A DNA stretch of 64,000 nucleotides. Source: a virus. Its lineage: Duplodnaviria; Heunggongvirae; Uroviricota; Caudoviricetes. This document shows, piece by piece, positions 1-52,582 of the stretch. A program made the translations under genes and the position numbers. The notes under the pieces were generated by a model. The model searched no databases. It was not told where the DNA came from and saw only the letters and a list, made by a program, of their open reading frames with translations. The stretch is from IMG/VR virus record IMGVR_UViG_3300032322_001781, one strand, 5' to 3'. Every line of letters starts with the position of its first letter. The first letter of the stretch is position 1.

Positions 1-61
1 GATTTCAGCAAATAACAATCATCAAACTTTTACTTTGAATAGAAAACATCACTCTGTATTT

Positions 62-147
62 GGGGGAGCTGCTCAGATGGTGGATGGGCACCAGACTGTA
101 AATCTGGCACATAAGAAACGCAGGGGGTTCGAATCCCTCCTTCCCCA
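62..147 (+). tRNA. tRNA-Tyr (anticodon GTA), type II with long variable arm
   Basis: Manual cloverleaf: 7-bp acceptor gggggag/cttcccc, anticodon loop ctGTAaa, T-arm ggggg-ttcgaat-ccctc, 15-nt variable arm. Confidence 0.8.
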
Positions 148-205
148 CGTCTAGACTGTTATACTTTCATAGACGGTGAACAACCGTAGCATAGAAAGTT
201 AAAAT

Positions 206-277
206 GCCTCTGAAACATATATGGTGATGTGCTAGTCTTGTAAACTAGATAATCCGATTCGAGTTCGGACAGAGGCT
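206..277 (+). tRNA. tRNA-Thr (anticodon TGT)
   Basis: Acceptor gcctctg/cagaggc, D-stem acat/atgt, anticodon stem ctagt/actag with loop ctTGTaa, T-arm tccga-ttcgagt-tcgga. Confidence 0.85.
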
Positions 278-383
278 CAAAAGAATGAAAAGAAATCTCA
301 GAGATGGTTGACATGTGTTACGACTGAAGGCGGCACTAATAGGTTTTTTCCAACATGAAGTACAAGTGTTGGATAGTTCATAT

Positions 384-457
384 GCATCATTCGCCTAGTT
401 GGTATGGCACCACACTTCCAATGTGGAATAGGGTCGGTTCGAGACCGACATGATGCT
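384..457 (+). tRNA. tRNA-Gly (anticodon TCC)
   Basis: Acceptor gcatcat/atgatgc, anticodon stem ccaca/tgtgg with loop ctTCCaa, T-arm gtcgg-ttcgaga-ccgac. Confidence 0.85.
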
Positions 458-524
458 CTGTGGTTATGGGACTGTTTATGATTTTATCGACTTGGCATTT
501 CAAGGAACGTAAAAAATCAACAAT

Positions 525-598
525 GTCGGTGACGCATAATTGGTGGTGCACCACCTTGCCAAGGTGGAATAGAGTGGGTTCGATTCCCATTACCGACT
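525..598 (+). tRNA. tRNA-Gly (anticodon GCC)
   Basis: Acceptor gtcggtg/taccgac, D-stem gcat/gtgc, anticodon stem ccacc/ggtgg with loop ttGCCaa, T-arm gtggg-ttcgatt-cccat. Confidence 0.85.
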
Positions 599-979
599 CG
601 TAAGTCGCTGGGACCTTAACCGTGCGAAATTCAAATAAGACAGTGAAAGGTGACGGGTGCAGAGAGAGGCACATAACGGGAGGGTTGAAATGGTAGAACA
701 ATACATTTTGACTAAAAAATGTTTACAGCAAAAAACACAAAATTCAAACAAACAGTAAATTTGCGTAACGTAGGTGCGACTCCTACCCCTCCCAATCAAT
801 CAAGTTAACTCGCTTCCACGTAGCGATTGATGGAAACAGGTAAAGCTGGCTAAGAAGTTAAAAAAATTATTAATAAAAAATAAAAACTACATTATGAAAA
901 AGATGTCCTTCAAATTTAAACGAAAATCCAAACGTTAAAGGCATCTGTAGATAACCTACGGATGCTTAATATTATATAC

Positions 980-1053
980 TGGCGTGTATCCGTAAAGGCA
1001 TTCGGTCCTCCCTCTTAAGGAGATTTATGTGGGTTCAACTCCCATCACGCCAA
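980..1053 (+). tRNA. tRNA-Lys (anticodon CTT) by manual fold
   Basis: Acceptor tggcgtg/cacgcca, anticodon loop ctCTTaa, T-arm gtggg-ttcaact-cccat; starts with T and 4-bp anticodon stem, so moderate confidence. Confidence 0.6.
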
Positions 1054-1058
1054 CTAAT

Positions 1059-1146
1059 GACTCTGTTCCCGTAGTTGGCCGAACGGTCCAGCCTTTTAAG
1101 CTGATGTGTGCAAACACCACCGTGGGTTCAAATCCCACCAGGGTCA
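1059..1146 (+). tRNA. Type II tRNA (Leu/Ser/Tyr-like architecture, 17-nt variable arm hairpin gtgt-gcaa-acac); anticodon uncertain (my fold gives TTT)
   Basis: Acceptor gactctg/cagggtc, perfect T-arm gtggg-ttcaaat-cccac, long variable arm; anticodon arm ccagc-cttttaa-gctga. Confidence 0.6.
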
Positions 1147-1162
1147 CAAAATTTTATAAAAA

Positions 1163-1372
1163 ATGATAAACATAGAATCACAGCTTTTAGAGGCTTACCC
1201 TCAATTTAGGAGGATTTGGGTTCAATATTCAAATCATAGGGGTTATCATGTGTGTATAACGTTATTTCCACAAGGCCATGAGCGTTATAAAATGTTATTT
1301 GGTGAAGTTAATAAAATAACGTTTGAAGTAGTTGATTCTTTGATTAGAAAACATTTGGTTAATTCAAATTAA
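1163..1372 (+). CDS. hypothetical small protein
   Basis: ORF immediately after tRNA cluster; no recognisable motif. Confidence 0.3.
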   Translation: MINIESQLLEAYPQFRRIWVQYSNHRGYHVCITLFPQGHERYKMLFGEVNKITFEVVDSLIRKHLVNSN

Positions 1373-1389
1373 TTTAATACCTTTGTATT

Positions 1390-2106
1390 ATGATTTATAT
1401 TCAATCCGATTCTGAACGTTTAAGACCTCATCATTTTGATTGTGCTTGTGGCATGTTTGGTGCTATAGAAACAGATAATAAATATCGATTAACTTCTTTT
1501 GAAGAAGTTGTTAGTGGTAAGTTTGATAATTTAATTAGAAATAATTTATTTATTGGTTCGGTTGAATTTATGCGTGAAGTTTTTAAACGTATTGGTTTGA
1601 ATAACGTTAAGTTACCTAAAAATTCTAATAGGGAACATGAAATAATTACATTAGGTGAAGCTTTATCTCGTTCAAAATCTGGTGAAGAAATTTTCATTAA
1701 ACCTTTGGAAATTAAATTATTTACTGGTTTCGTGTTAGATAAGTCTATTTACACTTGTTTAAATGGTATACCTAATGAAACTAAAGTTATGGCGTATAAA
1801 CCATTTGAACAACCCTTAGAAACAGAATGGCGGTTTTATATTCATAATAATAAAATTGTTGATGCTAGAAATTATTCTGGTGATTTCTTTAAAATACCTT
1901 CTTCGGAATATGTGTTAAAATGCGTGGCTGAAAATAGAGAAAATTTTCCCATTGCTTATACTATAGATGTTGGAATTATGGGTAAAGAAATGGTTGTTAT
2001 AGAATATAATGATATGTGGTCTATTGGTAATTATGGGGTGGATAATATAACATATCTTAAATTATTAAAAGACAGATATTTTGAAATAGTTAGAAAAAAT
2101 TTTTAA
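1390..2106 (+). CDS. hypothetical protein, possibly ATP-grasp-like fold
   Basis: 238-aa ORF; weak resemblance to phage ATP-grasp-like proteins (IFIKP...WRFYI...VIEYNDMW). Confidence 0.4.
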   Translation: MIYIQSDSERLRPHHFDCACGMFGAIETDNKYRLTSFEEVVSGKFDNLIRNNLFIGSVEFMREVFKRIGLNNVKLPKNSNREHEIITLGEALSRSKSGEEIFIKPLEIKLFTGFVLDKSIYTCLNGIPNETKVMAYKPFEQPLETEWRFYIHNNKIVDARNYSGDFFKIPSSEYVLKCVAENRENFPIAYTIDVGIMGKEMVVIEYNDMWSIGNYGVDNITYLKLLKDRYFEIVRKNF

Positions 2107-2118
2107 AATTTTTAACCA

Positions 2119-2448
2119 ATGCAATGTACAACACTTGACAGGGTAGAAGAAAATGGAATTATGGTTATGAGACCAAAAAAACAATTTGACACATTAGATA
2201 AAGCAATTGCAGTTGCTAAGATTGAAAATGCTAAACCTGAGCATTTACATAAGGTTGTTGCTTATAAGTGTAATATTTGTTATAAGTACCATATTGGTAG
2301 AAATGGTAAACCTTTAACTGTTAAAGAGCGTAATAAGCGACAGCAAGAAATAAAACAATCTGTTGAGGTTAAAGAAGCTAAACATCAACATGCGTTGGAT
2401 AATTTAAAAGTTGTTGGTTATATTGATTTAAATAAAATAAAATATTGA
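2119..2448 (+). CDS. hypothetical protein
   Basis: ORF; Cys pair CNICYKYH; true start may be downstream Met. Confidence 0.4.
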   Translation: MQCTTLDRVEENGIMVMRPKKQFDTLDKAIAVAKIENAKPEHLHKVVAYKCNICYKYHIGRNGKPLTVKERNKRQQEIKQSVEVKEAKHQHALDNLKVVGYIDLNKIKY

Positions 2449-2451
2449 AAA

Positions 2452-2563
2452 GCTGTTATAGTTTAATTGGCTAGAACACCGCAAATCCCAGCGGAAAGAG
2501 AACCAAGTCACTTCTAGTGTGGCGTTAGGTGAAGTAATTTAGGTTCGAATCCTAATGACAGCT
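2452..2563 (+). ncRNA. tRNA-like element of atypical length (~112 nt) with canonical T-arm
   Basis: T-arm ttagg-ttcgaat-cctaa at 2539-2555 and acceptor pairing gctgtta/tgacagc, but intervening length does not fit a standard cloverleaf (possible insertion or other small RNA). Confidence 0.35.
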
Positions 2564-2579
2564 CAAAATTAATTACAAA

Positions 2580-3704
2580 ATGGAAACGAGTAATAATTTA
2601 AATATAGATAAGAAGATATTGGTAGCTCTTAGTGGTGGTATCGATTCAACCGTATCAGCCATACTTCTTAAAGAACAAGGTTTTGATGTAATTGGAGTCA
2701 CAATGAAGACTTGGGATTATACTAGTTCTGGTGTCGTTGAGTCTTCAAAGAAAACAACTGGTTGTTGCTCTTTAGATGATATAAATGATGCTAGACAAGT
2801 TTGTGTAGATTATGATATACCTCATTATATTCATGATATAAGAAATGATTTTAACGATTCAGTTGTAAATAACTTTATTGATGAATACATGGAAGGTCGA
2901 ACTCCAAACCCTTGTATTATTTGTAATACACATATTAAATGGGGTGCTTTATTACGTATTGCTGATAAATTAGATTGTAAATATATTGCAACTGGTCACT
3001 ATGCTAATATTCGTAAAGAAGATGACCGTTATATTCTATCGAGTGGTGTAGATGTAACCAAGGACCAATCTTATGTATTATGGGGTTTAACTCAAGAAGT
3101 ATTAGCTCGTACTATATTTCCAGTGGGTGGTTATGAAAAGACGCAAATAAGACAAATGGCTTTAGATAGAGGTTATGCTGATATAGCAAAGAAGAGCGAA
3201 AGTTATGAAATTTGTTTTATTCCAGATAACAATTACCGAGCTTTTTTATCAAGAAAGCGTGACATAACCAAGGGTAACTTTTTGGATACTGCTGGAAACG
3301 TTATTGGCACACATGATGGGTTTCCATTCTTTACTATAGGTCAAAGAAGAGGTCTTGGTATAACAAATTCCGAACCTTATTATGTAACAGACATCAACCC
3401 AATCACCAATGAAGTAACGTTGGGTTGTGAAGTTGACCTTATGAGACAATCAATGATTGTTTCAAATGTTAATATCATAAAGTATTCGTATGCTTTGTTG
3501 AATGGAATGGATGTTCTTGCTAATGTAAGATATCGTGGTAAGACAGTACTAGGTAATGTGACATGTTTGGGTGATAGAATGATTAGAATTGATTTTAATC
3601 ACCAAATTAGAGCAATAACTGCTGGTCAATCCAGTGTGTTTTATGACCCATCAAATCCATCCGATGTTATTGGTGGTGGGCATATTCACCAAGTAATATT
3701 ATAA
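2580..3704 (+). CDS. mnmA: tRNA-specific 2-thiouridylase MnmA
   Basis: PP-loop SGGIDSTV near N-terminus, conserved catalytic Cys region (CCS, CNT..KWG), full-length similarity to MnmA/TrmU. Confidence 0.9.
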   Translation: METSNNLNIDKKILVALSGGIDSTVSAILLKEQGFDVIGVTMKTWDYTSSGVVESSKKTTGCCSLDDINDARQVCVDYDIPHYIHDIRNDFNDSVVNNFIDEYMEGRTPNPCIICNTHIKWGALLRIADKLDCKYIATGHYANIRKEDDRYILSSGVDVTKDQSYVLWGLTQEVLARTIFPVGGYEKTQIRQMALDRGYADIAKKSESYEICFIPDNNYRAFLSRKRDITKGNFLDTAGNVIGTHDGFPFFTIGQRRGLGITNSEPYYVTDINPITNEVTLGCEVDLMRQSMIVSNVNIIKYSYALLNGMDVLANVRYRGKTVLGNVTCLGDRMIRIDFNHQIRAITAGQSSVFYDPSNPSDVIGGGHIHQVIL

Positions 3705-3729
3705 AGCCGACATATGTCGGCTTTTTTTG
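3705..3729 (+). terminator. rho-independent terminator after mnmA
   Basis: Hairpin agccgacat-atgtcggct followed by T7 run. Confidence 0.75.
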
Positions 3730-3772
3730 TTTATTTTATGTAAGTTTCAATTATATTTATTGGAAAAACATT

Positions 3773-4333
3773 ATGAATATCAAAAATAGATTAAGAATGG
3801 CGTTATTAGAAGCAAAACATAAAAACCATAAGAATGATTATGGTTGTATAATGGTTTATTTGAATGTGGACCAAGATAAATGGGATGCTATGCAAGATAT
3901 GATTGATGAAGAAGATTTATACCAACCAGAAGATGACCCAAGCTATGGCAAAGAAACTGAACCGCATGTAACAGTTTTGTTTGGATTACATAATGACATT
4001 CCAGATTCAGATATTGAAGATGAAATCAATAAAATAAAAGAACCTAAAATAAAATTTGGTGATATATCATCTTTCTCTAATCCAAAGTTTGATGTATTGA
4101 AATTTGATGTTGATAGCAAGGACATGCACCAGTTAAATAAGAAGTTTAGAGAATTTCCATATACCAGTGATTACCCAGATTACCATCCTCATTGTACAAT
4201 AGCTTATTTAAAGTCCAATATGTCCAAAAAATACATCAAAAAACTAAAAGATTTTGTTGATATTGATATGGAAACCAGCCATGTGGTATATTCTAAATCT
4301 AACGGAAAAAAAAAGTCCTATAAATTGCCCTAA
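3773..4333 (+). CDS. 2H phosphoesterase superfamily protein (LigT / 2'-5' RNA ligase-like)
   Basis: Two H-x-T/S-x motifs: EPHVTVLFG and HPHCTIAY, spaced as in LigT/CPDase. Confidence 0.65.
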   Translation: MNIKNRLRMALLEAKHKNHKNDYGCIMVYLNVDQDKWDAMQDMIDEEDLYQPEDDPSYGKETEPHVTVLFGLHNDIPDSDIEDEINKIKEPKIKFGDISSFSNPKFDVLKFDVDSKDMHQLNKKFREFPYTSDYPDYHPHCTIAYLKSNMSKKYIKKLKDFVDIDMETSHVVYSKSNGKKKSYKLP

Positions 4334-4364: not shown

Positions 4365-5489
4365 ATGAAACAACTAATTAAAAAAATCTTAAACGAAAAT
4401 CTAAACATAATATATGAAATAGATTTGCAAGGAACGTTTAAAGATGTCTCCTTCAAACAATTGTCTATAGATGAAGCTAGAGAGTATCTAGAAAGAGTAA
4501 TATCTAATTGTGAGAAAAAACCAGCTGAAAGAGAAAAATTAGCAGCAAATAAACCATATATTCACGGAAAAGCTATACCTAAAAGCGAGGGTGGTGAAAT
4601 AGACATGGATGCTTTCATTCAAAAGATAACTTCTATGCCAAATGAAATTTTAAGTATAAATTCAAAAATGGCAAAATCGGCTGATGATAATTCATTTACT
4701 GTTAATATTGGTATACCAGCATTAAGAGGTTTGGTATATGATTTGGATGCTGGGGTTTTTTATATAGTCAATACTTGTCCAGGGGCTGGTGCCTGTGCTT
4801 TATTTTGTTATGCTAGGCAGGGTAGTTATGTTATGTTTCCAAATGTGTTTGTTAATCAAACCAGAATATTAAATTTGCTACTCAATTTCCCAGAAAGATT
4901 TGAAAAATTATTATTTAGGGAATTAGAATCAGTTGCTTTAAAAAATCCAAACATGTCCATAAAAATGAGATGGAACGATGCTGGTGATTTTTTCAGTGAA
5001 GAATATTTCAACATTGCTTTTAGAATTACCAAAAAATTAAAAGCGGATGGTTATAATGTAACATCATATGCTTATAGTAAAATGGCTAATGTTGCTAATT
5101 TAGAAGATGACGATTTCATTGTAAATGTATCTGGAGATATCAACGTTAAACAATCTAAACAGATAAAGGATATTGAAAGCAAAAAAACACAAGTAACGGT
5201 ACCTAAAGATTTGTTTGACGACTTATTATTAAAGGATAAAAGACAATATGCTGTAAATGAAAAGGGTAAAGTCATATTTAAGAATGGTCAAGATGGTATA
5301 GATGCCTTGAAAAAGAGAATATCTTTAAAATATGACGTACCAGTTGAAACATTATTAACTTACGATGAGATGATGAAAACACCAAAAGGTGAGAAAAATC
5401 AATACAATGTAGTTATAATGCCAAGAGGTGATGGTGACATAGCTGCACAAAGAATGGATGTTAAAACTAGTTTTTTATTAATTCACTAA
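4365..5489 (+). CDS. hypothetical protein, Cys-rich motif CPGAGACALFCYA
   Basis: 374-aa ORF, no confident family assignment. Confidence 0.5.
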   Translation: MKQLIKKILNENLNIIYEIDLQGTFKDVSFKQLSIDEAREYLERVISNCEKKPAEREKLAANKPYIHGKAIPKSEGGEIDMDAFIQKITSMPNEILSINSKMAKSADDNSFTVNIGIPALRGLVYDLDAGVFYIVNTCPGAGACALFCYARQGSYVMFPNVFVNQTRILNLLLNFPERFEKLLFRELESVALKNPNMSIKMRWNDAGDFFSEEYFNIAFRITKKLKADGYNVTSYAYSKMANVANLEDDDFIVNVSGDINVKQSKQIKDIESKKTQVTVPKDLFDDLLLKDKRQYAVNEKGKVIFKNGQDGIDALKKRISLKYDVPVETLLTYDEMMKTPKGEKNQYNVVIMPRGDGDIAAQRMDVKTSFLLIH

Positions 5490-6386: not shown

Positions 6387-6818
6387 ATGATGTTAAAAGA
6401 AAAAATAAACAATGATTTCATGGAGGCTTATAAAGCTAAAAACATGGAAAAGAAAAACTTTTTGGGTGTTCTTAAAGGGGCTATTCAAACACAAGAAGGC
6501 AAGATGATAGAATCTACCGATGAAAACGTTTTAAAAGTTATAAAAGCTTTAGAAAAAGGTTTGATTGAGACGATTGAAAGTAAAAATAGAATAGGTCAAG
6601 ACCCTAGTAAAGTAGAAACTGAATTGTCATACTTACAACCATATTTACCTTCGCTTATGAGTGAAGATGAAATTCGTTATGTTGTAAAAGAATTGTTAAA
6701 TAGAGAAGGTATTAACAAAAACCTAGGGTTTCTTATGGGTATGTTTAACAAAGAACAAAGAGGAAAGTCTTTTGATAACAAAGCCGTTTCAAAAATCATA
6801 AACGAAGAACTAGGATGA
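6387..6818 (+). CDS. GatB/YqeY domain protein
   Basis: Aligns along length with YqeY: N-term LKE.IN.D...A.KAK and C-term LMG...N.....S.D.K.VSK.I.E.L. Confidence 0.65.
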   Translation: MMLKEKINNDFMEAYKAKNMEKKNFLGVLKGAIQTQEGKMIESTDENVLKVIKALEKGLIETIESKNRIGQDPSKVETELSYLQPYLPSLMSEDEIRYVVKELLNREGINKNLGFLMGMFNKEQRGKSFDNKAVSKIINEELG

Positions 6819-9834: not shown

Positions 9835-10776
9835 ATGAGTAACATATTAAATATTAAACCAGATGTTGACCCATCAACAGCCCAAATTGGGGTGATAATG
9901 GCCCGTTTCCAAGTAGCTCAACTTCACGAAGGTCATAAACAACTTATAGATACTGTATTACACTATCATAAAAAAGTTATAATTTTTCTTGGGGTGTCTA
10001 AAAAATCTTCCGACAAGAATAGTCCTCTTGATTTTGCTAATAGAAGGGCTATGATTCATGAATCGTATCCAAACGTTATCGTGCTTCCTCAATTGGATGT
10101 GCGTGATGACCACAAATGGTCTGCAAATTTAGATGCACAGATTTCATTACCGTTTGGTGAGTTATCTGCTGTGATTTATGGTAGTAGAGATTCGTTTATT
10201 CCACACTACCATGGCAAATACAAGGTTATTGAAGTTTTGCCTAAAACACCAGTTAACGGAACTTCAGAAAGATTGGCTATAGCTAGAGAAGTTATCCCTA
10301 GTGTTGATTTTAGAAAAGGTGTTATTTACCAAACATTTACACAACGCCCAGTAACCTATCCAACTGTTGATGTGGTTGCTTACAATGACAATGGTCAAAT
10401 CCTTTTGGCTAAAAAACCCAACGAAATTCTTTATCGTTTTGTTGGTGGTTTTGTTGACCGTACTGATGAATCTTGGGAATCTGCCGCTAAACGTGAGTTC
10501 ATGGAAGAAAGTGGTGGATGCGAGATAGGTGATTTGAAATACGTTGCTAGTGCTAAAATCAACGATTGGAGATATGCCAAATCAGAATCTGGTATCATGA
10601 CAACATTGTTCTTGGGTAAATTCATGTGGGGCAATGCAAAACCATCAGATGACATTGCAGTTTTAGATTGGTTGAACCCAGAAGATATCAACCCAGAAAA
10701 AGACATCATGTTGGAACACCGTGAACTCTTCATCAAATTGATTGAGTTTATGAAAGCACAAAAGTTGATAAAATGA
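9835..10776 (+). CDS. nadM: bifunctional NMN adenylyltransferase / Nudix ADP-ribose pyrophosphatase (NadM-like)
   Basis: N-terminal nucleotidyltransferase H-x-G-H motif (LHEGH); C-terminal Nudix box GGFVDRTDESWESAAKREFMEESG. Confidence 0.8.
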   Translation: MSNILNIKPDVDPSTAQIGVIMARFQVAQLHEGHKQLIDTVLHYHKKVIIFLGVSKKSSDKNSPLDFANRRAMIHESYPNVIVLPQLDVRDDHKWSANLDAQISLPFGELSAVIYGSRDSFIPHYHGKYKVIEVLPKTPVNGTSERLAIAREVIPSVDFRKGVIYQTFTQRPVTYPTVDVVAYNDNGQILLAKKPNEILYRFVGGFVDRTDESWESAAKREFMEESGGCEIGDLKYVASAKINDWRYAKSESGIMTTLFLGKFMWGNAKPSDDIAVLDWLNPEDINPEKDIMLEHRELFIKLIEFMKAQKLIK

Positions 10777-10882
10777 AAGTAGCTGTAATAGGTAGTGGCA
10801 TTTTGGGACCAAAATAGTAGCGGTACGAAAGACTCAATTAAAAAAGCTGATAAGGCTGGTAAAAAAATATTGATAATTACAT

Positions 10883-10913
10883 TTTGATAATTCAAATATT
10901 ATTCGTACCTTTG
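10883..10913 (+). promoter_or_regulatory. Bacteroidetes-type promoter upstream of NAMPT
   Basis: TTTG ... TACCTTTG. Confidence 0.55.
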
Positions 10914-10943
10914 CACAAATAACAACAATTAAAAAATAAATAT

Positions 10944-12566
10944 ATGCAATCCGCAAGTCGTTTTTTAAAAAGAAAGCTAGGTCTTAAATCAGTGATTAAA
11001 GACCGCTTGGCTGAAGCCATCAAGAATCGTGATTGGGCTTCCATCGAAAATTTACAAGACCTTATTGCTAAGGCTTTGGATAAACCGTATAACCTTGTAC
11101 TTATGGGTGATGCTTACAAGTATTCACATCATAAGTTTTATGAGGACAATACTACCAAGGTTTATTCTTACATGGAGTCACGTGGTGGAAAATTCAGTGA
11201 AACCGTAGTTTACGGTATTCAAATGTTCATCAAAGAATTTATCGAAGGTGTTGCAATCACTCAAGAAGAGTTGGATGAAGCATACGAATACTTAGGTACA
11301 AAATTGGGTGTGTTCGGACGTGAAGACGTATTCGACAAATCCAAATTCCAATACATAATTGACGTTCACGGTGGCCGTCTTCCAGTTCTTATCAAAGCTG
11401 TTCCAGAAGGAACCGTTGTTGGTGTAAAGAACGTATTGGTAACTATTGAAAACACCGACCCTAATTGCTACTGGTTGACCAACTTCCTTGAAACTATCAT
11501 GATGCAAGTTTGGTATCCTATTACCGTAGCTACCTTATCTCACGAAGTTAAAAAAATTGTTCGTGAGTACTTCCAAAAAACATCAGACCTTCCAGAAAAT
11601 ATCATGGACACGGTTATTGAGTTCGTATTGAACGACTTTGGTTTCCGTGGTGTGTCTTCCGTACAATCGGCTGGTATCGGTGGCTCTGCTCACCTTGTAA
11701 ACTTCTTGGGTTCTGATACAACTTATGCTTCAAAACGTATCTGTGAATACTACAACTCTGACCGAGTATTTGGTTTGAGCGTACCAGCGACTGAACACTC
11801 TATCATGACAATGAGAGGTGAAGCTGGTGAAGTTGAAATGATGAGACGTACACTTGAAAAATATCCTACTGGTATTGTTGCTTGTGTATCTGACTCTTAC
11901 CACATCCTTCGTGCTTGTTCACAATATTGGGGAACTGAATTGCGTGACCTTATCTTGAGTCGCCCAGCAGAACCAGGTAACCAGTTGGTTATTCGCCCAG
12001 ACTCTGGCCACGTTGTGAATACACTTAAAGCTGTATTTGAAATCTTGTTTGACAAGTTTGGTTACACAACCAACTCAAAAGGATTCAAAGTATTACCTCC
12101 ACAAGTCCGTGTTATCCAAGGTGATGGTGTAAACATCGGTTCTATTGGTGAAATCTATGAAGAACTTTACAAGCTAGGTATTTCTGCTGAGAACATCGTG
12201 TTTGGTATGGGTGGAAAGTTGTTACAAGCTGACATCAACCGTGACACACAAAACTTCGCAACCAAAGCGTGTTTTGCAGTTGTTGATGGTGTTGAGCGTG
12301 ACCTTGTAAAATCACCAACAGAAGTTGATGAAAATGGTGACTTGAAACCTTCATTCAAGAAATCAAAACAAGGTCGTTTGAAACTTGTTAAGAATGAAGA
12401 TGGAACTTACCGCACTGTAACATCACGTGATGCTGACTTTGATAGCGTTAATGATGAATTGGTTCCAATATTCCAAGATGGTGAAATACTTGTAGAATAC
12501 ACATTCGAAGAAATCAGAGAAAGAGTTCAAGCTACTTTCAAAAAACAAGAATTGGAGGTTGCGTAA
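10944..12566 (+). CDS. nadV: nicotinamide phosphoribosyltransferase (NAMPT/NadV)
   Basis: Strong NAMPT-family similarity (DAYKYSHHKFY.., VVYGIQMFIKEF, GSDTTY motifs); about 48-aa N-terminal extension relative to canonical NAMPT. Confidence 0.85.
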   Translation: MQSASRFLKRKLGLKSVIKDRLAEAIKNRDWASIENLQDLIAKALDKPYNLVLMGDAYKYSHHKFYEDNTTKVYSYMESRGGKFSETVVYGIQMFIKEFIEGVAITQEELDEAYEYLGTKLGVFGREDVFDKSKFQYIIDVHGGRLPVLIKAVPEGTVVGVKNVLVTIENTDPNCYWLTNFLETIMMQVWYPITVATLSHEVKKIVREYFQKTSDLPENIMDTVIEFVLNDFGFRGVSSVQSAGIGGSAHLVNFLGSDTTYASKRICEYYNSDRVFGLSVPATEHSIMTMRGEAGEVEMMRRTLEKYPTGIVACVSDSYHILRACSQYWGTELRDLILSRPAEPGNQLVIRPDSGHVVNTLKAVFEILFDKFGYTTNSKGFKVLPPQVRVIQGDGVNIGSIGEIYEELYKLGISAENIVFGMGGKLLQADINRDTQNFATKACFAVVDGVERDLVKSPTEVDENGDLKPSFKKSKQGRLKLVKNEDGTYRTVTSRDADFDSVNDELVPIFQDGEILVEYTFEEIRERVQATFKKQELEVA

Positions 12567-13054
12567 TGGTTAAGAATAACATGGTCTTATTTTGGGGAGG
12601 AACATTCTCTCAGTGGTTCCCATCTGATTTCATCATAGATGGAATCAAATACGTAACAGCAGAACAATATATGATGGCTAGAAAAGCCAAACTTTTTGGT
12701 GATAATGATGCTTATCGTGAAATCATGAAATCAAAAGACCCAGCTTATCAAAAACGAATTGGCCGTCAAGTAAAAGGATTTGAAAAAAATGAATGGGAAT
12801 CTATTTGTCGTCAAATTGTTTATGATGGAAACTACGCTAAATTCAGTCAAAATCCAAGTATGAAAGCTGAATTAATGGCTACTGGTGAGTTGGAAATTGT
12901 AGAGGCTAGTCCATATGATAAAATTTGGGGTATTGGTCTTCACGAAACAGACCCACGTGCTTGGGATAAAGCAACGTGGTTAGGAACCAACTGGCTTGGA
13001 ATTGAAATTATGAAAGTAAGAAAAAAACTTAGAGAAGATGACGCAAATTCATAG
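12566..13054 (+). CDS. NADAR (YbiA/DUF1768) domain protein
   Basis: FWGGTFSQWFP...YVTAEQYMMARKA...SPYDKIWGIG matches YbiA-like N-glycosidase/NADAR family. Confidence 0.75.
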   Translation: MVKNNMVLFWGGTFSQWFPSDFIIDGIKYVTAEQYMMARKAKLFGDNDAYREIMKSKDPAYQKRIGRQVKGFEKNEWESICRQIVYDGNYAKFSQNPSMKAELMATGELEIVEASPYDKIWGIGLHETDPRAWDKATWLGTNWLGIEIMKVRKKLREDDANS

Positions 13055-13141
13055 ATACGAAGAAAGTGTAAGTGCATTTGTTTAAAGATGAATTTTTAGA
13101 CAAATTAAAACAAATAACAAATTTTTTAAAACTTAAATAAG

Positions 13142-13597
13142 ATGATTAAATATGTAGATGGTGATTTACTCAAACTTGCCGATGAGGGTTATTTCGATGT
13201 AATTGCGCACGGAGCGAATTGTTTTTGCAATATGGGTGCTGGTATAGCTCCACAAATTAAAGCTAAATATCCAGAAGCTTATAAAGTTGATTGTGAAACT
13301 ATTGTTGGTGATATAAATAAGTTAGGAACGATAACTTATACTAAAAATACAACACCTATTGTTGTTAATATTTATTCTCAGTTCGACACAAAAGGTCGAA
13401 GACAGGGTAAAATTGATTTAGACTATGAAGCTTTACGTTCTGGTATCAAAGCTATGAAAGAAAAATTTTCTGGTAAACGATTTGGACTCCCATACATAGG
13501 AACGGGTTTGGCGGGAGGCAATGAAGCTAAGGTTATAGCTATAATAGAGGAAGAAATGAGAGGTGAGTACGTAACTATGGTTAGATACGTACCATAA
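13142..13597 (+). CDS. macrodomain protein (ADP-ribose binding / ADP-ribosyl hydrolase)
   Basis: Macro motifs DVIAHGANCFCNMGAGIAPQI and GLPYIGTGLAGG. Confidence 0.75.
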   Translation: MIKYVDGDLLKLADEGYFDVIAHGANCFCNMGAGIAPQIKAKYPEAYKVDCETIVGDINKLGTITYTKNTTPIVVNIYSQFDTKGRRQGKIDLDYEALRSGIKAMKEKFSGKRFGLPYIGTGLAGGNEAKVIAIIEEEMRGEYVTMVRYVP

Positions 13598-13618
13598 TTC
13601 TTTAAAAAAGTATTAAAT

Positions 13619-13804
13619 ATGTCTAAACAAACGATTACAATTGGCGTTGCCAATGAAAAAGAAAAAAACATAGATGTTGAAGAATTAAAAACATGGGTAC
13701 CTAAAAATATTAGTTATTTTAGCGATACTGTTTATTTTAAACAGGATAAAGTTTATTATTCGATGAAAAGATTGGATTTTGATAAAATATTTCCTAAAAA
13801 ATGA
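13619..13804 (+). CDS. hypothetical small protein
   Basis: ORF. Confidence 0.3.
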   Translation: MSKQTITIGVANEKEKNIDVEELKTWVPKNISYFSDTVYFKQDKVYYSMKRLDFDKIFPKK

Positions 13805-14238
13805 GTGTAGTTAAAGCAATAGAAAAATTTTACCAAGATAAAGAAAAACGTGGTTGGGAAAAAGGGTTTTTTTTCTTTGATATTCATGGGACTATTCTTA
13901 AGCCAAATTATGAGTATGGTAATACACCAAAAGAATTCTATCCATATGCTAAAGAAGTTCTGCAACTTTTTAGTAAACGAAAAGATGTTTGTATGATACT
14001 TTATACTTGCTCACACCCAGATGAAATTGAAGAATATCTTAAACTTTTTGAGAATAATAACATAAAATTTGATTATGTAAATGAGAATCCAGAAGTTGTA
14101 ACTGATGTAAATGGTTATGGTTGTTACGATAAAAAACCATATATGAATGTCTTATTTGAAGATAAAGCTGGTTTTTATGGTGAAGAAGATTGGTTACCAG
14201 TTTTAAAGCTTTTAAAAGAAAAATACCCAGACGTGTAA
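13801..14238 (+). CDS. hypothetical protein
   Basis: ORF. Confidence 0.45.
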   Translation: MSVVKAIEKFYQDKEKRGWEKGFFFFDIHGTILKPNYEYGNTPKEFYPYAKEVLQLFSKRKDVCMILYTCSHPDEIEEYLKLFENNNIKFDYVNENPEVVTDVNGYGCYDKKPYMNVLFEDKAGFYGEEDWLPVLKLLKEKYPDV

Positions 14239-14318
14239 ATATAATTTGTCTTTTTTATTTATTAAACTTCTTGTTTTATTGAAAAATAACTAGTACTTTT
14301 GTGTAAATTAATTACATT

Positions 14319-14606
14319 ATGAAAAAACTAAACACAATTTTTGCCTTAGTCATATTAACATTTTTACTATATGGTTGTTTTCCACGTGAAATTCATTCTA
14401 ACAATACAAATGAGTTACCAGGTTTTTGGTTGGGTACGTGGCATGGTATGATAAGTGGTTTTTCATTTATAGGTAGCTTATTCGATGATTCGATTAAAGT
14501 TTATGCAATAAATAATAATGGACATTGGTATGATTTTGGTTTTGTTGGTGGGTTATTTTTTATTTTTAGAATATTTTTTAGTATGATAAATAGTAAAAAA
14601 GATTAA
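14319..14606 (+). CDS. hypothetical membrane protein
   Basis: N-terminal TM/signal, second hydrophobic segment. Confidence 0.4.
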   Translation: MKKLNTIFALVILTFLLYGCFPREIHSNNTNELPGFWLGTWHGMISGFSFIGSLFDDSIKVYAINNNGHWYDFGFVGGLFFIFRIFFSMINSKKD

Positions 14607-14607
14607 T

Positions 14608-14907
14608 ATGAGTTATAGGCCGCTACCAAGTTATTTAACGATAAAACCATCTATATTAGATGGTCTTGGGTTATTTGCAACCGATGATATTGATGAGAAT
14701 CATGTTCTTGGTATATCACATGTTTTTCATTCCAATTTTCAAGATGGGTATATCAGAACTCCTTTAGGTGGATTTTTTAATCATTCTGATTCACCTAATT
14801 GCAAAATAGTTGATAAGGGAGCTTATCTAATATTGCAGACGATAAGAAAAATAAATGCTGGTGAAGAAATAACAGCTTATTACACATTATATAAACTAGA
14901 AAAATGA
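14608..14907 (+). CDS. SET domain protein (putative lysine methyltransferase)
   Basis: GLGLFA, NHSDSPNC (NHSCxPN-like) and EEITAYY (post-SET-like) motifs. Confidence 0.65.
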   Translation: MSYRPLPSYLTIKPSILDGLGLFATDDIDENHVLGISHVFHSNFQDGYIRTPLGGFFNHSDSPNCKIVDKGAYLILQTIRKINAGEEITAYYTLYKLEK

Positions 14908-15269
14908 GCGTAATTAAATTTGAATTAAAAAAAGAACACGTGCTTTTGCTGAAAAATTTACGTTGGAGCGTAAACAGTCGGGGTATTATTAGTGGTGTTG
15001 CTGATGAAGGTGATGAAATAGCGCCTCCATTTGGTGAAACAAACATATATGATGCTATTAGTCTGATATTAAATGGAAAACCAGAAAATGTTGATTTGTT
15101 AACACATGATGAATTTTTTATTTACACAGATGAACAAAAAGCTGAATGGGATAAATTATATTCTGAGTTGCCAACAGCTCTAGAGATTATTCTTAGTAAT
15201 AATAGTTTTGATACTGGTATTTATAAAACAAAATATCATTTACGAGACTGGAAAAAAATTAATTCATAA
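14904..15269 (+). CDS. hypothetical protein
   Basis: ORF. Confidence 0.45.
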   Translation: MSVIKFELKKEHVLLLKNLRWSVNSRGIISGVADEGDEIAPPFGETNIYDAISLILNGKPENVDLLTHDEFFIYTDEQKAEWDKLYSELPTALEIILSNNSFDTGIYKTKYHLRDWKKINS

Positions 15270-15449
15270 AAATGAATAAGATAAAGTTTTTATCACTATT
15301 TTTTCTTATATTAATAGTGTTTGTCTCTATTAAAATTTTTTTAATATCCTTATCTATAATTTTTACTTTTTTAAAAATTGTAATTTTTAGTTTTTTAATA
15401 ACATGTGTTTTGTTTTTAATTATTTATTTTAAAAATAAGTTTAAATAAT

Positions 15450-15481
15450 TTTGTTAGTTATATATTTTTTTAATACCTTTG
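15450..15481 (+). promoter_or_regulatory. Bacteroidetes-type promoter
   Basis: TTTG ... TACCTTTG. Confidence 0.55.
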
Positions 15482-15496
15482 TAAAAATTCTATTAC

Positions 15497-15688
15497 ATGA
15501 CCTATAAAAAATCTTATGCGATTGTTAAAACCTTTAAAGAAAAGGGTAAAATAAAATCTATTTTATTAGTTGACACACATTCTGAAATATGGGAATTTGA
15601 TGATTTTAATGAAGCACAAGCAATTGCTGATGTTTTAACAAAAAATTCTGATTCTGGTTGGATGTATTTTGTAAGGTCTATTAATTAA
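15497..15688 (+). CDS. hypothetical small protein
   Basis: ORF. Confidence 0.35.
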   Translation: MTYKKSYAIVKTFKEKGKIKSILLVDTHSEIWEFDDFNEAQAIADVLTKNSDSGWMYFVRSIN

Positions 15689-15699
15689 AAATAACAATC

Positions 15700-16656
15700 A
15701 TGGAATCTATAATTTTTTCATTAGATGGTAGAGTAGATTTGATGAACTCTATTTTAGAACATTATAATAAAATTTCAGAAAACAAAAACACTATTATAGG
15801 TGAATTCAACCATCAAAAATTTTCAGATGGTGAATTATGTGGTGATTATAGCGTATCTGTAAGAGGTAAAAGAGTTTATCTTTTATCAAGTGCTAATGAT
15901 AGTGACAAAATTATTAGTCTAATTTTAGCAATTGATGCTGCAAAAAGGGCTGCTGCGTCCGAAATCATTCCAATACTCCCATATTTTCCTTATGCTAGAC
16001 AGGATAAAAAGGACCAAGTTAGAGGCCCTATTGGAGCTAAAGTTATTGCAAGTATGTTAGAAAATGCTGGTGCAACATCCATAATCACATTTGACTTACA
16101 CGCAGACCAAATTCAAGGTTTTTTTGATATTCCTCTTACGCACATAGAAGGTAAAAACGTTTTCGATGATTACATATATTCAATTTCTAACGAAAATACT
16201 GTTTTGTGTGGACCAGACGCTGGCTCTGGCAAGAGAGTTAAAAGAATGAAAGACCAATTATTAAATCATTATGGTTTAGATTTAAATTATGTTATGATGG
16301 ATAAAACCAGAAAAGTTGCTAATGAGGTTGATAAAATGGTTATAATTGGAGATGTTCAAGATAAAGATGTGATAATTTTGGATGATATGGTTGACACAGC
16401 TGGGACTTTATGTAAAGCTGCTAGTGTGATTATAGAAAACGGGGCTAAAAGTGTTATGGCTATAATTAGTCATGGTGTTTTATCTGGGAATGCTTATAAA
16501 AATATTAATTCTTCAGTTTTAAAAGAATTGGTAATAAGTGATTCACTACTTAAAAAAGATTTACCTAATAATATTATAACAATAAGTATTGATTTTCAAA
16601 TAGCGAAAACTATCGCTTCAATAAACAATAATTTAAGTTATGAATTAATAAAATGA
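15700..16656 (+). CDS. prs: ribose-phosphate pyrophosphokinase (PRPP synthetase) family protein
   Basis: Prs architecture: DGE..G.....VRGK.VYLL.S N-domain and PRTase-type C-domain (VIILDDMVDTAGTL). Confidence 0.8.
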   Translation: MESIIFSLDGRVDLMNSILEHYNKISENKNTIIGEFNHQKFSDGELCGDYSVSVRGKRVYLLSSANDSDKIISLILAIDAAKRAAASEIIPILPYFPYARQDKKDQVRGPIGAKVIASMLENAGATSIITFDLHADQIQGFFDIPLTHIEGKNVFDDYIYSISNENTVLCGPDAGSGKRVKRMKDQLLNHYGLDLNYVMMDKTRKVANEVDKMVIIGDVQDKDVIILDDMVDTAGTLCKAASVIIENGAKSVMAIISHGVLSGNAYKNINSSVLKELVISDSLLKKDLPNNIITISIDFQIAKTIASINNNLSYELIK

Positions 16657-19353: not shown

Positions 19354-19908
19354 GTGTTAGTCAATGTGTTAAAGGTGGTATTAAAACCTCTGGTGGGTTT
19401 ATATGGAAATATAATAAAAATAAAGATTATGAGTAATTTAAAAAAAGAAAGTATCACAATCAATTGTGATTTTGACGGAACTGTTGTAACACATGACTAC
19501 CCAGAAGTTGGGAGGGATATAGGTGCTGTACCTGTTTTAAAAAGACTTGTGGCTGAAGGGCATCAATTAATCTTGTTCACTATGAGAAGTGATAAGGAAT
19601 TTGTTGAAAGAGATGGAAGTGTTACTACTCGTGGTCTTAAAGATGCGATTGATTGGTTTGTAAAGAATGATATTCCATTATATGGGGTACAAACAAATCC
19701 AACTCAACACACTTGGACTAATTCACCTAAAAGTTATGCACAATTAATGATTGACGATTCATCAATTTTTGCCCCATTAATTTTTGATGAAACTATTTCT
19801 AATAGACCATTTATTAATTGGGTTGAAGTTGAAAAAATATTAGAGGTTCGAGGAATATTAACACAAAAAACAAAAGAAAATGGAGAACAAGCAACAAATA
19901 ACGTTTGA
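19354..19908 (+). CDS. HAD-superfamily hydrolase (5'(3')-deoxyribonucleotidase-like)
   Basis: HAD motif I DFDGTVV near N-terminus. Confidence 0.5.
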   Translation: MLVNVLKVVLKPLVGLYGNIIKIKIMSNLKKESITINCDFDGTVVTHDYPEVGRDIGAVPVLKRLVAEGHQLILFTMRSDKEFVERDGSVTTRGLKDAIDWFVKNDIPLYGVQTNPTQHTWTNSPKSYAQLMIDDSSIFAPLIFDETISNRPFINWVEVEKILEVRGILTQKTKENGEQATNNV

Positions 19909-34379: not shown

Positions 34380-34389
34380 CGTTTTGCAG

Positions 34390-34416: not shown

Positions 34417-34470
34417 GTGCTGTTATAAGTAGTTGCGGATTATTAGTAAAAACTTCAAAATAAAAAGAAA

Positions 34471-52579: not shown

Positions 52580-52582
52580 AAC

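Follow-up and report, generated by a model that had tools for sequence, protein, structure and literature searches.

Introduction

Why phages carry tRNA genes is an old question. Tyrosine and lysine tRNAs are targets of retron-Eco7 and PrrC, and tRNAs encoded by phages counteract these defences (PMC11555353). The evasion known for retron-Eco7, PrrC and PARIS proceeds through tRNA overexpression or changes in the anticodon loop and not through an added arm, and in phage T4 PrrC is countered by the pair Pnkp and Rnl1. In the early region of phage T5 the tRNA array is interspersed with small open reading frames (ORFs), homing endonucleases and tRNA-like stable RNAs, and for jumbo phages gene sets for translation, RNA repair and NAD+ metabolism have already been described together with a conflict-based interpretation (PMC7824862). 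Here we describe a stretch of 64 kb (64,000 nucleotides, nt; hereafter the window) from the IMG/VR record IMGVR_UViG_3300032322_001781, a virus of the Caudoviricetes, whose first 4333 positions hold a tRNA array, a gene for the tRNA-thiolating enzyme MnmA and a gene for a 2H phosphoesterase, and in which two tRNA-Lys genes are preceded by a lysine-rich mini-ORF and a hairpin.

The locus resembles the T5 region in its array with tRNA-Tyr and tRNA-Lys and in its A1-like, T5.080-like lipoprotein and YqeY-type genes, and differs from it in that the tRNA-Lys of T5 has no Lys-rich leader, hairpin or long variable arm. With T4 Pnkp and Rnl1 it would share a phage response to the loss of tRNA-Lys, together with a HAD domain of the 3'-phosphatase type, but the kinase and ligase that define the T4 pair were not found among the ORFs screened here, and the response looks like replacement. 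Common to the window and to the jumbo-phage sets of Iyer et al. 2021 (PMC7824862) are tRNA arrays, 2H and HAD phosphoesterases, Thg1, a T5-A1-like phosphodiesterase, Nampt, Nudix, Macro and NADAR genes and an R2K ATP-grasp gene; in contrast to those sets, no ATP-grasp or RtcB RNA ligase, kinase or CCA-adding enzyme is seen in these 64 kb, MnmA is not part of the published sets (the paper contains no 'thiouridylase'), and neither the Lys leader nor the ribozyme nor the long-arm tRNAs reported below are described there.

The explanation that we prefer, to which a probability of about 0.5 is assigned as a whole, is that positions 1–4333, the downstream part of a co-directional tRNA array followed by the first accessory genes, belong to the early 'translation-support and counter-defence' region of an AT-rich jumbo phage. 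The phage would sustain the decoding of AAA, CAA and GAA by fresh Lys and Gln tRNAs thiolated by its own MnmA. Such a supply would become important once host tRNAs run short or defence nucleases directed at tRNA-Lys or tRNA-Tyr cut them, and the rescue would proceed by replacement and not by resealing.

Lysine tRNA genes behind a lysine-rich candidate leader

The tRNA genes of the array and the two elements that precede the tRNA-Lys pair are the following:

62..148, plus strand: tRNA-Tyr(GUA), type II as usual in bacteria (ARAGORN; Rfam 41.4 bits)
206..278, plus strand: tRNA-Thr(UGU) (ARAGORN; Rfam 51.6 bits)
384..458, plus strand: tRNA-Gly(UCC) (ARAGORN; Rfam 53.7 bits)
525..599, plus strand: tRNA-Gly(GCC) (ARAGORN; Rfam 48.7 bits)
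894..938, plus strand: Lys-rich mini-ORF MKKMSFKFKRKSKR with its stop codon, candidate leader peptide (6 Lys codons in 14)
939..967, plus strand: 12-bp hairpin (scan for terminator-like structures; 1501-1529 in contig L007)
980..1053, plus strand: tRNA-Lys(CUU), anticodon loop CUCUUAA (Rfam 40.8 bits; missed by ARAGORN)
1059..1147, plus strand: tRNA-Lys(UUU), 89 nt, long variable arm GUGU-GCAA-ACAC, discriminator A73 (ARAGORN, Rfam)

All six tRNAs show the canonical cloverleaf: the acceptor stem has 7 bp, the D, anticodon and T arms are present, U33 stands in an anticodon loop of 7 nt, and the T loop conforms to UUCRANY. The five called by ARAGORN score 33–54 bits, the Rfam gathering score for tRNA being 29. 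An original prediction, made from the letters of the window, had listed at least six tRNA genes, among them Tyr, Thr, Gly-TCC, Gly-GCC and Lys, and had allowed that the programs might reject them; no such rejection occurred with ARAGORN and Rfam. Contig L007, which comes from the same phage and has identical genes at an offset of +562, extends the sequence upstream by 562 nt; there it holds Pro-TGG, a second Pro-TGG of 95 nt and a Gln-TTG of 88 nt, so that the array starts upstream of the window. Related arrays retain this order: that of L102 comprises 13 tRNAs including Pro, three Gln(UUG), two Tyr, Thr, two Gly and three Lys(UUU) and adjoins the GP88 and 2H genes, and in L001 one Gln and three Lys tRNAs adjoin MnmA.

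The hairpin begins 1 nt past the stop codon of the mini-ORF and ends 12 nt before tRNA-Lys(CUU), and a minimum free energy of -17.7 kcal/mol was calculated for the 87-nt segment of leader plus hairpin. A Lys-rich mini-ORF with a hairpin precedes the first tRNA-Lys in nine loci (eight besides the window) belonging to several lineages, the 635-kb phage LR745206 included; the leader peptides at the other loci include MKTKLKYKR, MKNLTIISKKKKKR and MTIKRKYKR, each followed by a stop codon. Five unrelated stem sequences could be seen in a single architecture, in which the stop codon lies 0–3 nt from the stem and the end of the stem 8–15 nt from the tRNA. Among non-redundant tRNAs of related phages with at least 90 nt of upstream spacer, the leader was present at 7 of 14 tRNA-Lys genes against 1 of 107 other tRNAs (p = 4e-7), and no other isotype of this sample is preceded by a leader rich in its cognate amino acid. 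An independent sample of 120 IMG/VR loci (L114–L233), chosen solely by the tRNA-Lys anticodon-arm pattern, gave 4/82 for tRNA-Lys against 0/303 for the others (p = 0.002). The leader is specific to tRNA-Lys but confined to some lineages, and a random small gene is unlikely because the mini-ORF is both tied to tRNA-Lys and itself rich in Lys.

The closest regulatory parallel is found in the ribosome-mediated attenuators (trpL, hisL, pheL; tnaC), where a very short ORF rich in the codons of one amino acid likewise lies directly upstream of an RNA structure and of the genes of that amino acid's pathway. The genes controlled here are, however, tRNA genes and not biosynthetic enzymes, the leader has a single hairpin that lacks a U tract and any obvious alternative pairing, and the quantity sensed would be the decoding capacity of Lys-tRNA. 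No alternative (antiterminator) pairing was detected at the leader hairpin, and no description of a Lys leader of this sort was found in the literature searched. We infer that the leader couples the output of tRNA-Lys to Lys decoding. The tRNA-Lys pair would stand under a control unit of its own, the mini-ORF abutting the 12-bp hairpin; a ribosome slowed on the terminal Lys codons would hold the hairpin open, and the open hairpin would couple read-through or processing of the tRNA-Lys genes to the capacity for decoding Lys.

A paired extra arm on a lysine tRNA

The 'type II tRNA' of the original prediction is the 89-nt tRNA-Lys(UUU) at 1059–1147, as called by ARAGORN. Cellular class II tRNAs are confined to Leu, Ser, bacterial Tyr and Sec; this tRNA has a paired extra arm, yet its anticodon UUU falls outside that set. 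Homologues that share its D arm carry UUU, CUU or GUU anticodons. In an alignment of the seven members of the family 98% of the cells pair and compensatory changes are present in 4/4 pairs of the variable arm, values that were reached in none of 500 shuffles; since every pair of the arm shows compensatory change, the arm is under selection and not in decay. The discriminator is A73 in 4/5 of the UUU/CUU members (U73 in one) and G73 in 3/3 GUU tRNAs examined, one of these with a different D arm, and it tracks the anticodon in the way predicted by the identity rules of lysyl- and asparaginyl-tRNA synthetases (LysRS and AsnRS).

An exact 30-mer of the long-arm tRNA had no match in IMG/VR, and a shorter D-arm pattern was required to find relatives. 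The D-arm 18-mer occurs in just eight stretches of 185,579 species genomes, two of them phage-like arrays in oddly labelled metagenome-assembled genomes (MAGs) and six not tRNAs. In the 120-locus sample, tRNAs of at least 82 nt amount to 10/123 for Lys, 5/32 for Asn, 4/48 for Met and 4/34 for Ile, with some Thr, Trp, Cys, Gln, Gly and Val. In phage arrays it is fairly common for a long-arm tRNA to carry an anticodon other than those of Leu, Ser and Tyr; many of these tRNAs have D arms of the class II type, and their long arms often close in GNRA loops; no description of such long-arm, non-class-II phage tRNAs was found in the literature searched. The same phage has long versions of Pro(UGG) and Gln(UUG), of 95 and 88 nt (L007 358-452 and 465-552), and the 95-nt Pro(UGG) retains the bacterial tRNA-Pro marks C1-G72 and A73.

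MnmA beside its predicted substrates

Downstream of the tRNA-Lys pair the following genes were identified:

1163..1372, plus strand: 69-aa protein, function unassigned (an ORF of 56% identity occupies this position in relative L001; no Pfam match)
1390..2106, plus strand: R2K-clade ATP-grasp protein, predicted peptide or amino-acid ligase (PF18299 4.8e-23)
2580..3704, plus strand: MnmA, tRNA 2-thiouridine(34) synthase (three Pfam domains; PDB 2DER 3e-63)

MnmA does not directly follow the Lys tRNAs, as had been stated: three ORFs (those of the 69-aa protein, the R2K ATP-grasp protein and a 109-aa protein) and a tRNA-like RNA intervene. The gene itself is present and intact, as foreseen, with all three domains and an NCBIfam equivalog score of 397 bits (cut-off 284). 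The PP-loop SGGIDS is kept, and the Cys motifs NPCIICN and YEICF align with those of solved MnmA proteins; the catalytic cysteines of the E. coli enzyme are C102 and C199. A cysteine desulfurase, the partner in the sulfur relay (IscS/Tus or YrvO), was not seen in the window. MnmA is rare in phage records, with 26 matches of which several are tiny contigs. The stop codon of MnmA is overlapped by a strong terminator-like hairpin that includes a U tract (3703–3724, AAAGCCGACATATGTCGGCTTT TTTTG), and because of this hairpin MnmA and the 2H gene are probably not strictly co-transcribed.

The predicted substrates of MnmA are tRNA-Lys(UUU), tRNA-Gln(UUG) and tRNA-Glu, which it would modify at U34. 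The codons read by these tRNAs are prominent in the window, where AAA is the commonest codon (8.4%) and AAA, CAA and GAA together make up 17.6% of 16,668 codons (AAA 1397 vs AAG 263; CAA 433 vs CAG 45; GAA 1110 vs GAG 189). The arrays of the window and its relatives are rich in Lys and Gln tRNAs, and the array supplies tRNAs for the commonest codon types of the phage: Lys, Gln, Pro, Thr, Gly and Tyr. From codon use, the arrays of the relatives and the rarity of MnmA in phages, we read MnmA with the Lys and Gln tRNAs as what would be a functionally coherent core.

A probable Acb1-type phosphodiesterase

The gene that follows MnmA was found at:

3773..4333, plus strand: 2H phosphoesterase, Acb1 / 2_5_RNA_ligase2 type (PF13563 9e-12 and PF23474 (Acb1) 8.8e-9, both above threshold)

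It had been taken for a LigT-like 2H phosphoesterase, of which the 2H part stands: the predicted structure has the 2H fold (predicted local distance difference test, pLDDT, 88) and two HxT motifs are present, HVT (65–67) and HCT (140–142), with H65, H140 and T142 invariant and T67 nearly so in 44 homologues. The LigT part did not hold by sequence. The LigT models stay below threshold (TIGR02258, LigT/ThpR, 32.7 bits vs a cut-off of 65.7; PF02834 17.9 vs 23.3) whereas PF23474 passes with 35.7 bits (gathering score 27), and a profile search of the PDB did not detect LigT at E up to 10. The sequence matches in the PDB, with the single sequence as with the 44-member profile, are to Acb1 alone (9Q2G, E 2e-4). 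A fold search intended to separate Acb1 from LigT did not discriminate between them. An identical 2H protein is encoded on a contig of 0.2–1 Mb.

Compared with the known Acb1 proteins (T4 gp57B, phage FBB1, Burkholderia phage BCSR5), the 2H fold, the two HxT motifs, the PF23474 score above threshold, the sequence match to Acb1 alone among solved proteins and the position among counter-defence genes agree. The differences are its length (186 aa with an extra N-terminal helix, vs 137–165 aa), an identity of 15–19% and fold scores no better than those for Usb1 or a plant cyclic phosphodiesterase (CPDase). The protein is most likely, to judge by its sequence, an Acb1-type phosphodiesterase acting on cyclic-oligonucleotide immune signals, a role in keeping with the NAD+ salvage, NADAR, Macro and T5-A1-like genes nearby.

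Structured RNAs around the array

Five further RNA elements were found, four of them within positions 1–4333:

650..675, plus strand: 26-nt motif GTGACGGGTGCAGAGAGAGGCACA, hairpin GUGC-AGAGAGAG-GCAC, 2 nt upstream of the tRNA-like RNA 678-794
678..794, plus strand: degenerate tRNA-like RNA, 117 nt (Rfam tRNA 23.5 bits, below the gathering score; no ARAGORN call)
795..862, plus strand: candidate self-cleaving ribozyme like that of hepatitis delta virus (HDV-like), theta/drz-Fpra type (RF02682 42.8 bits)
2452..2563, plus strand: tRNA-like RNA, 112 nt (Rfam 41.1 bits)
48896-48964: tRNA-like RNA, 69 nt, far from the array (Rfam 37.2 bits; no ARAGORN call)

The three tRNA-like RNAs depart from the canonical cloverleaf. 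The RNA at 678–794 keeps a 7-bp acceptor stem and has a fold z-score of -2.8; its T loop reads UGCGACU, its 'anticodon' loop of 8 nt is UGACUAAA, and about 48 nt make up the variable region. The presence of CUA in this loop, with a ribozyme adjacent, suggested a suppressor tRNA and stop-codon recoding, but read-through of TAG, TGA and TAA gave no meaningful merging or lengthening of ORFs in the window. The RNA at 2452–2563 carries the identity marks of bacterial tRNA-Gly (G1-C72, C2-G71, CCC, U73) together with an 8-nt loop AAAUCCCA and a 45-nt variable region. Its homologue in L098 (2669-2763) retains the loop AAUCCCCA on a covarying stem, the variable regions ranging from 28 to 45 nt. The loop is similar to the CCCC anticodon of the classical sufD frameshift suppressor. 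ARAGORN, with introns allowed, proposed an Arg-TCT with a 27-nt intron for this RNA; this was rejected because in the L098 homologue a covarying stem still bears the 8-nt loop AAUCCC(C)A and the proposed anticodon loop is missing. In the RNA at 48896–48964 the anticodon arm is cut down to 14 nt (CAUC-AGGAAA-GGUG). None of these RNAs is a transfer-messenger RNA (tmRNA): they lack the G3.U70 pair and have no corresponding ARAGORN or Rfam match.

The ribozyme candidate matches RF02682 with E 1.4e-4 for the whole window. The elements P1 (ATCAATC/GATTGAT), P3 (GCT/AGC), L3 (TCCACGT), P1.1 (GG), J4/2 (CTAAGA) and P2 (TTAACT/AGTTAA) are present and P4 can also be drawn, so that a nested double pseudoknot results, in which J4/2 begins with the catalytic C and which matches published theta ribozymes segment by segment. 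The predicted cut (794|795) falls directly after the discriminator of the degenerate tRNA-like RNA. A custom descriptor found no other convincing site in 1.4 Mb of related DNA. HDV-like ribozymes adjacent to tRNAs are a known class (Kienbeck et al. 2024, PMC10879173). The candidate sequence was not found in the supplementary tables of that paper that were searched. With these theta ribozymes and drz-Fpra (RF02682) the candidate shares L3 UCCACGU, P1.1 GG/CC, the catalytic C that opens J4/2 and a cleavage site abutting a tRNA 3' end without encoded CCA. It differs from them in beginning with A-U and not G.U, in a J4/2 (CUAAGA) and P4 longer than in the theta motif, in having a degenerate tRNA-like RNA upstream and the leader ORF, not a tRNA, downstream, and in the lack of any sign of stop-codon recoding in the window. 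In the preferred explanation the leader transcript would owe its 5' end to the ribozyme cut at the 3' end of the degenerate RNA. Such a cut leaves a 2',3'-cyclic phosphate, a point not discussed in PMC10879173, and the nearby 2H and HAD enzymes might conceivably remove it.

The 26-nt motif GTGACGGGTGCAGAGAGAGGCACA is identical in eight IMG/VR stretches and always lies 2–5 nt upstream of a tRNA or tRNA-like RNA; it is invariant across phages whose proteins are just 50–80% identical (L001 4022-4045, L098 1341-1366, L099 4955-4980), and in relatives it closes a conserved element of about 110 nt. No Rfam family matches the region, even when 276 nt were searched at E up to 10, and four sequences showed no covariation; on these grounds a miniature RNase P RNA or known ribozyme was rejected for this place. 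A reduced RNase P RNA-like gene of about 230–300 nt was seen in relatives, 8–9 nt upstream of a tRNA (L001 5585-5880; L098 2431-2660), and in L001 it directly precedes MnmA. It scores 28 bits over the full-length RF00010 model (E 4e-7, 551-nt search), with the conserved regions CR-I GAGGAAGUUC and CR-IV/V AGAUAAAUG...ACAGAAUCGCGGCUAA recognizable and most of the specificity domain missing. The window itself has no RNase P RNA at E up to 0.5, and no report of a phage RNase P RNA was found in the literature searched.

Enzymes for tRNA and RNA ends

Four genes about 12 kb or more downstream of the 2H gene encode proteins with a predicted role at RNA ends or in tRNA binding, or a Nudix domain:

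16789..17589, plus strand: Thg1-like protein (bacterial Thg1-like protein, TLP, type), predicted 3'-5' nucleotidyltransferase (PF04446 9.6e-30; PF14413, Thg1C)
19880..20224, plus strand: tRNA-binding-domain protein, Trbp111 / MetRS C-terminal type (PF01588 4e-11, 43.3 bits vs 27)
20221..20691, plus strand: Nudix hydrolase (PF00293 1.3e-17; RppH-like matches weak only)
22468..22989, plus strand: HAD phosphatase, RNA-repair (PNKP-phosphatase-like) type (PF10307 HAD_SAK_1 2e-11; phrog_415 'polynucleotide kinase' 6e-10)

The Thg1-like ORF was correctly recognized and keeps its catalytic carboxylates: in alignments with the B. thuringiensis TLP (BtTLP; PDB 4KGK) and with C. albicans Thg1, the D in 'RLDG' and the DE in 'SDEIS' coincide with those of the solved proteins. 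In the human enzyme these residues are D29, D76 and E77. The protein is closer to the B. thuringiensis TLP (E 1.4e-50) than to Thg1 (2e-18), and the segment for anticodon recognition (HINNLYN in Thg1) reads TRNSISM, as in TLPs; these features, and the lack of any tRNA-His in the window by ARAGORN, led us to reject a eukaryote-type Thg1 adding G-1 to tRNA-His. Such a gene is not unusual in a phage, contrary to what had been supposed, with 164 of 50,697 GenBank phage records (tblastn), mostly annotated as tRNA-His guanylyltransferase, and 388 IMG/VR contigs encoding relatives.

The tRNA-binding protein, of the Trbp111/CsaA type, consists of a stand-alone single OB-fold tRNA_bind domain (114 aa; TIGR00399 5e-16, under its cut-off, as equivalog models generally), and its gene overlaps the Nudix gene by 4 nt, in agreement with the Trbp111-like assignment and overlap given originally. 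Thg1-like, tRNA-binding, Nudix and HAD phosphatase genes are separate, lineage-conserved genes and not a unit with the array; their products may heal tRNA ends. Screening of about 55 ORFs with Pfam or PHROGs revealed no RNA ligase (Rnl1, Rnl2, RtcB), 5' kinase or CCA-adding enzyme. Given that no sealing enzyme was found in these ORFs, the visible enzymes, by their predicted functions, can heal RNA ends and cannot reseal a cut anticodon loop.

Surrounding genes and relatives

The window has 30% GC, the standard code fits, and all ORFs judged coding lie on the plus strand, many of them small. Its relatives are IMG/VR viral contigs and contigs of 331–372 kb, and the whole genome, of which the window is a part, probably exceeds 300 kb. 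A Bacteroidota-type promoter pattern showed no enrichment. Other genes of the window are:

4365..5489, plus strand: GP88-family protein, function unassigned (PF17338 2.5e-20; syntenic in L001 and L102)
6387..6818, plus strand: YqeY (GatB C-terminal-like) protein (PF09424 3.7e-17; syntenic in L102 and L103)
9835..16656, plus strand: NAD+/ADP-ribose block (NMNAT-Nudix 9835-10776, Nampt 10944-12566, NADAR 12566-13054, Macro 13142-13597, phosphoribosyl pyrophosphate (PRPP) synthetase 15700-16656)
17665..19266, plus strand: T5 A1-like metallophosphoesterase (phrog_1745 2e-145)
21555..22061, plus strand: translation initiation factor IF3 (IF3_N and IF3_C)
23021..25039, plus strand: RNase R/II family exoribonuclease (RNB 1e-112, plus CSD2 and S1 domains)
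29699..30145, plus strand: SmpB (PF01668 5e-49)

Relatives share the order tRNA array, MnmA and/or GP88, 2H, YqeY and AAA, and a second conserved block (PRPP synthetase, Thg1-like, A1-like, tRNA_bind, Nudix, IF3) is kept in about 20 contigs. In the window, YqeY, an AAA ATPase, NMNAT-Nudix, Nampt, NADAR, Macro and PRPP synthetase genes lie between MnmA/2H and the Thg1-like gene, on whose 3' side follow the T5-A1-like phosphoesterase, a nucleoside deoxyribosyltransferase-like protein, IF3, the RNA-repair-type HAD phosphatase, RNase R, two metallophosphatases, SmpB and a sigma-70 factor. The block at 9835–16656 is a full set of NAD+ salvage and ADP-ribose genes and resembles the NAD+-reconstitution pathways that phages use against NAD+-depleting defences. 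SmpB and the RNase R/II-family exoribonuclease, partners in trans-translation, are encoded alongside IF3; despite SmpB and RNase R, no tmRNA was found in the 64 kb by ARAGORN or Rfam.

T5 counterparts in the window are the A1 'DNA transfer' phosphoesterase (17665–19266, phrog_1745) and a T5.080-like lipoprotein (41170–42027, phrog_200), and the YqeY protein (6387–6818) may match T5.081 'tRNA amidotransferase', by name alone; there are hints of a T5-like ancestry of the early region. A tyrosine recombinase/integrase is preceded by 1.3 kb without an ORF of at least 80 aa, with a GmrSD_N-domain protein nearby (34380-35671, 35672-36472, 38836-39783), and further long stretches without such ORFs extend over 43860–45474 and 52580–53786.

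In the relatives, ORFs resembling GIY-YIG and HNH homing endonucleases break up the tRNA arrays and the interval between MnmA and 2H:

L001 2102-2722, 2996-3562 and 4380-5267: homing-endonuclease-like ORFs
L103 2822-3502, 5006-5530 and 10418-11026: homing-endonuclease-like ORFs

Their presence agrees with a turnover in which relatives rapidly acquire and lose array members as well as MnmA or 2H. Two contigs from MAGs, L105 (Saccharibacteria, 151 kb) and L110 (Methanobacterium, 171 kb), have phage-style tRNA arrays with long-arm Lys, Asn and Pro tRNAs, and L110 also has the Lys leader; both look like phage contigs binned into cellular genomes.

Discussion

The replacement of tRNAs together with U34 thiolation is better supported than repair. 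Several observations weigh against the preferred explanation, which is drawn entirely from sequence analysis. T5 has no Lys leader, and of the phage tRNA-Lys genes in the unbiased sample just about 5% have one. Since a U tract is missing from the leader hairpins, they are not canonical intrinsic terminators; the read-out may be termination, Rho access, RNase P processing or mRNA stability, and the mini-ORF could encode merely a small basic peptide. There is no tRNA-Glu, though GAA is the second most used codon. The ribozyme candidate is 1.2 bits short of the Rfam gathering score of 44 and its first P1 pair is A795-U833 where HDV-like ribozymes have a G.U wobble, for which reasons it may be slow or dead, and it is lacking in L001, the closest relative with the same array. 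Foldseek ranks Usb1, a poxvirus cGAMP phosphodiesterase, Acb1, plant CPDase and LigT together, and the fold of the 2H protein does not settle its substrate. Finally, the ORFs screened were the larger ones (about 55 of about 90), and the 64 kb belong to a genome that probably exceeds 300 kb, so that an RNA ligase could be encoded elsewhere.

The best surviving alternative, less likely in our estimate, is plain codon supplementation, in which the odd tRNA-like RNAs and the ribozyme would be relics of array turnover by homing endonucleases, the mini-ORF a small basic-peptide gene, and the hairpin a structure that stabilises the 3' end of its mRNA after RNase P has released the tRNA. The tRNA set does agree with the most used codons, degenerate or pseudo tRNAs and 'tRNA-like stable RNAs' have long been known in phage arrays (T5 RNA1-3, phi4:1 'tRNA-Pseudo'), and the GIY-YIG and HNH ORFs of the relatives, the hairpins without U tracts and a ribozyme without the G.U wobble and absent from L001 point the same way. 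It does not account for a mini-ORF that is Lys-rich and tied specifically to tRNA-Lys, for the recurrence of the hairpin architecture with unrelated sequences at fixed distances, for the compensatory change in every long-arm pair or for the conservation in L098 of the 8-nt loop of the 2452–2563 RNA.

A more ambitious form of the preferred explanation, which we regard as doubtful, would make the locus an on-demand circuit. Depletion of tRNA-Lys by PrrC, PARIS, RloC or Schlafen-type nucleases would stall the leader ribosome, open the hairpin and raise the output of the two tRNA-Lys; the extra arm would make the tRNA a poor nuclease substrate that is still charged by LysRS, MnmA would thiolate it, and the ribozyme and the RNase P RNA of relatives would partly free processing from the host.

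According to the original prediction, the tRNAs, MnmA, the 2H protein and the Thg1-like, tRNA-binding and Nudix proteins would form an integrated kit for repairing the breaks made by anticodon nucleases, by healing of 2',3'-cyclic phosphates and rebuilding of 5' ends, and this we consider unlikely. Jumbo-phage RNA-repair sets of this sort have been proposed earlier (PMC7824862), and the 2H fold with both HxT motifs, the intact TLP active site nearest to the B. thuringiensis enzyme, the RNA-repair-type HAD phosphatase and the translational coupling of the tRNA-binding domain to the Nudix gene are what such a kit would be made of. The sealing step is missing from it, however, with no RNA ligase, RtcB or 5' kinase among the ORFs screened; the 2H protein groups by sequence with Acb1 and not with LigT; no mismatch that would call for TLP editing is seen at the 5' acceptor end of any of the phage tRNAs; and tRNAs lie within 8 kb of a Thg1-like gene in just 16 of 80 phage loci. 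Nor do the components form one module: the MnmA/2H and Thg1/tRNA_bind genes are 12 kb apart with the NAD+/ADP-ribose genes between them and a terminator-like hairpin after MnmA, and their linkage is a synteny of the whole lineage. What remains of the toolkit is a concentration of tRNA genes and of enzymes for tRNA and RNA ends, with tRNA-Lys distinguished by its leader, its two genes and the long arm; the toolkit reading is supported in part.

It is very improbable that the long-arm 'Lys' tRNA is not a lysine tRNA and serves as a substrate of SerRS, LeuRS or TyrRS inserting another amino acid at AAA, or as an uncharged decoy. SerRS and LeuRS do not read the anticodon, the D arm and variable arm are of class II, and in a tRNAscan-based annotation the phi4:1 homologue is 'tRNA-OTHER / pseudo'; but the discriminators follow the LysRS/AsnRS rules (A73 in 4/5, G73 in 3/3), the 95-nt Pro(UGG) keeps its tRNA-Pro marks, and with AAA at 8.4% of the codons of the phage misreading would be self-damaging. 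An origin in a cellular genome or plasmid with ordinary housekeeping genes is extremely improbable, for although MnmA, IF3, SmpB, RNase R, PRPP synthetase and sigma-70 are housekeeping families and two relatives are in assemblies labelled as bacterial or archaeal MAGs, the coding ORFs are on one strand and many are small, the relatives are IMG/VR viral contigs, the T5 A1-like protein and several PHROG families are present, the MAG labels (Saccharibacteria, Methanobacterium) are mutually inconsistent and both contigs have phage-style arrays, and the long-arm D-arm 18-mer is otherwise absent from the tRNAs of 185,579 species genomes.

As a kit, the combination of a tRNA array with genes for translation support and counter-defence is already known from jumbo phages; it is the Lys leader and the long-arm tRNAs that are unusual here and merit experimental work. 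The over-integrated repair reading is corrected in that the 2H protein is more likely an Acb1 directed against the cyclic-oligonucleotide-based antiphage signalling system (anti-CBASS) and Thg1-like genes are commonplace in phages. Phage tRNA-Lys and tRNA-Tyr can neutralise defences that cut tRNAs, and to this the locus offers three testable additions. The leader and hairpin, if the coupling is true, would be the first case of a tRNA gene controlled by its own decoding capacity. The class II-type arm selected on phage Lys and Asn tRNAs, and less often on others, is not known for these isotypes in cells and raises questions about recognition by aminoacyl-tRNA synthetases and evasion of nucleases. 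A phage MnmA beside its substrates points to the supply of modification as a limiting step in infection.

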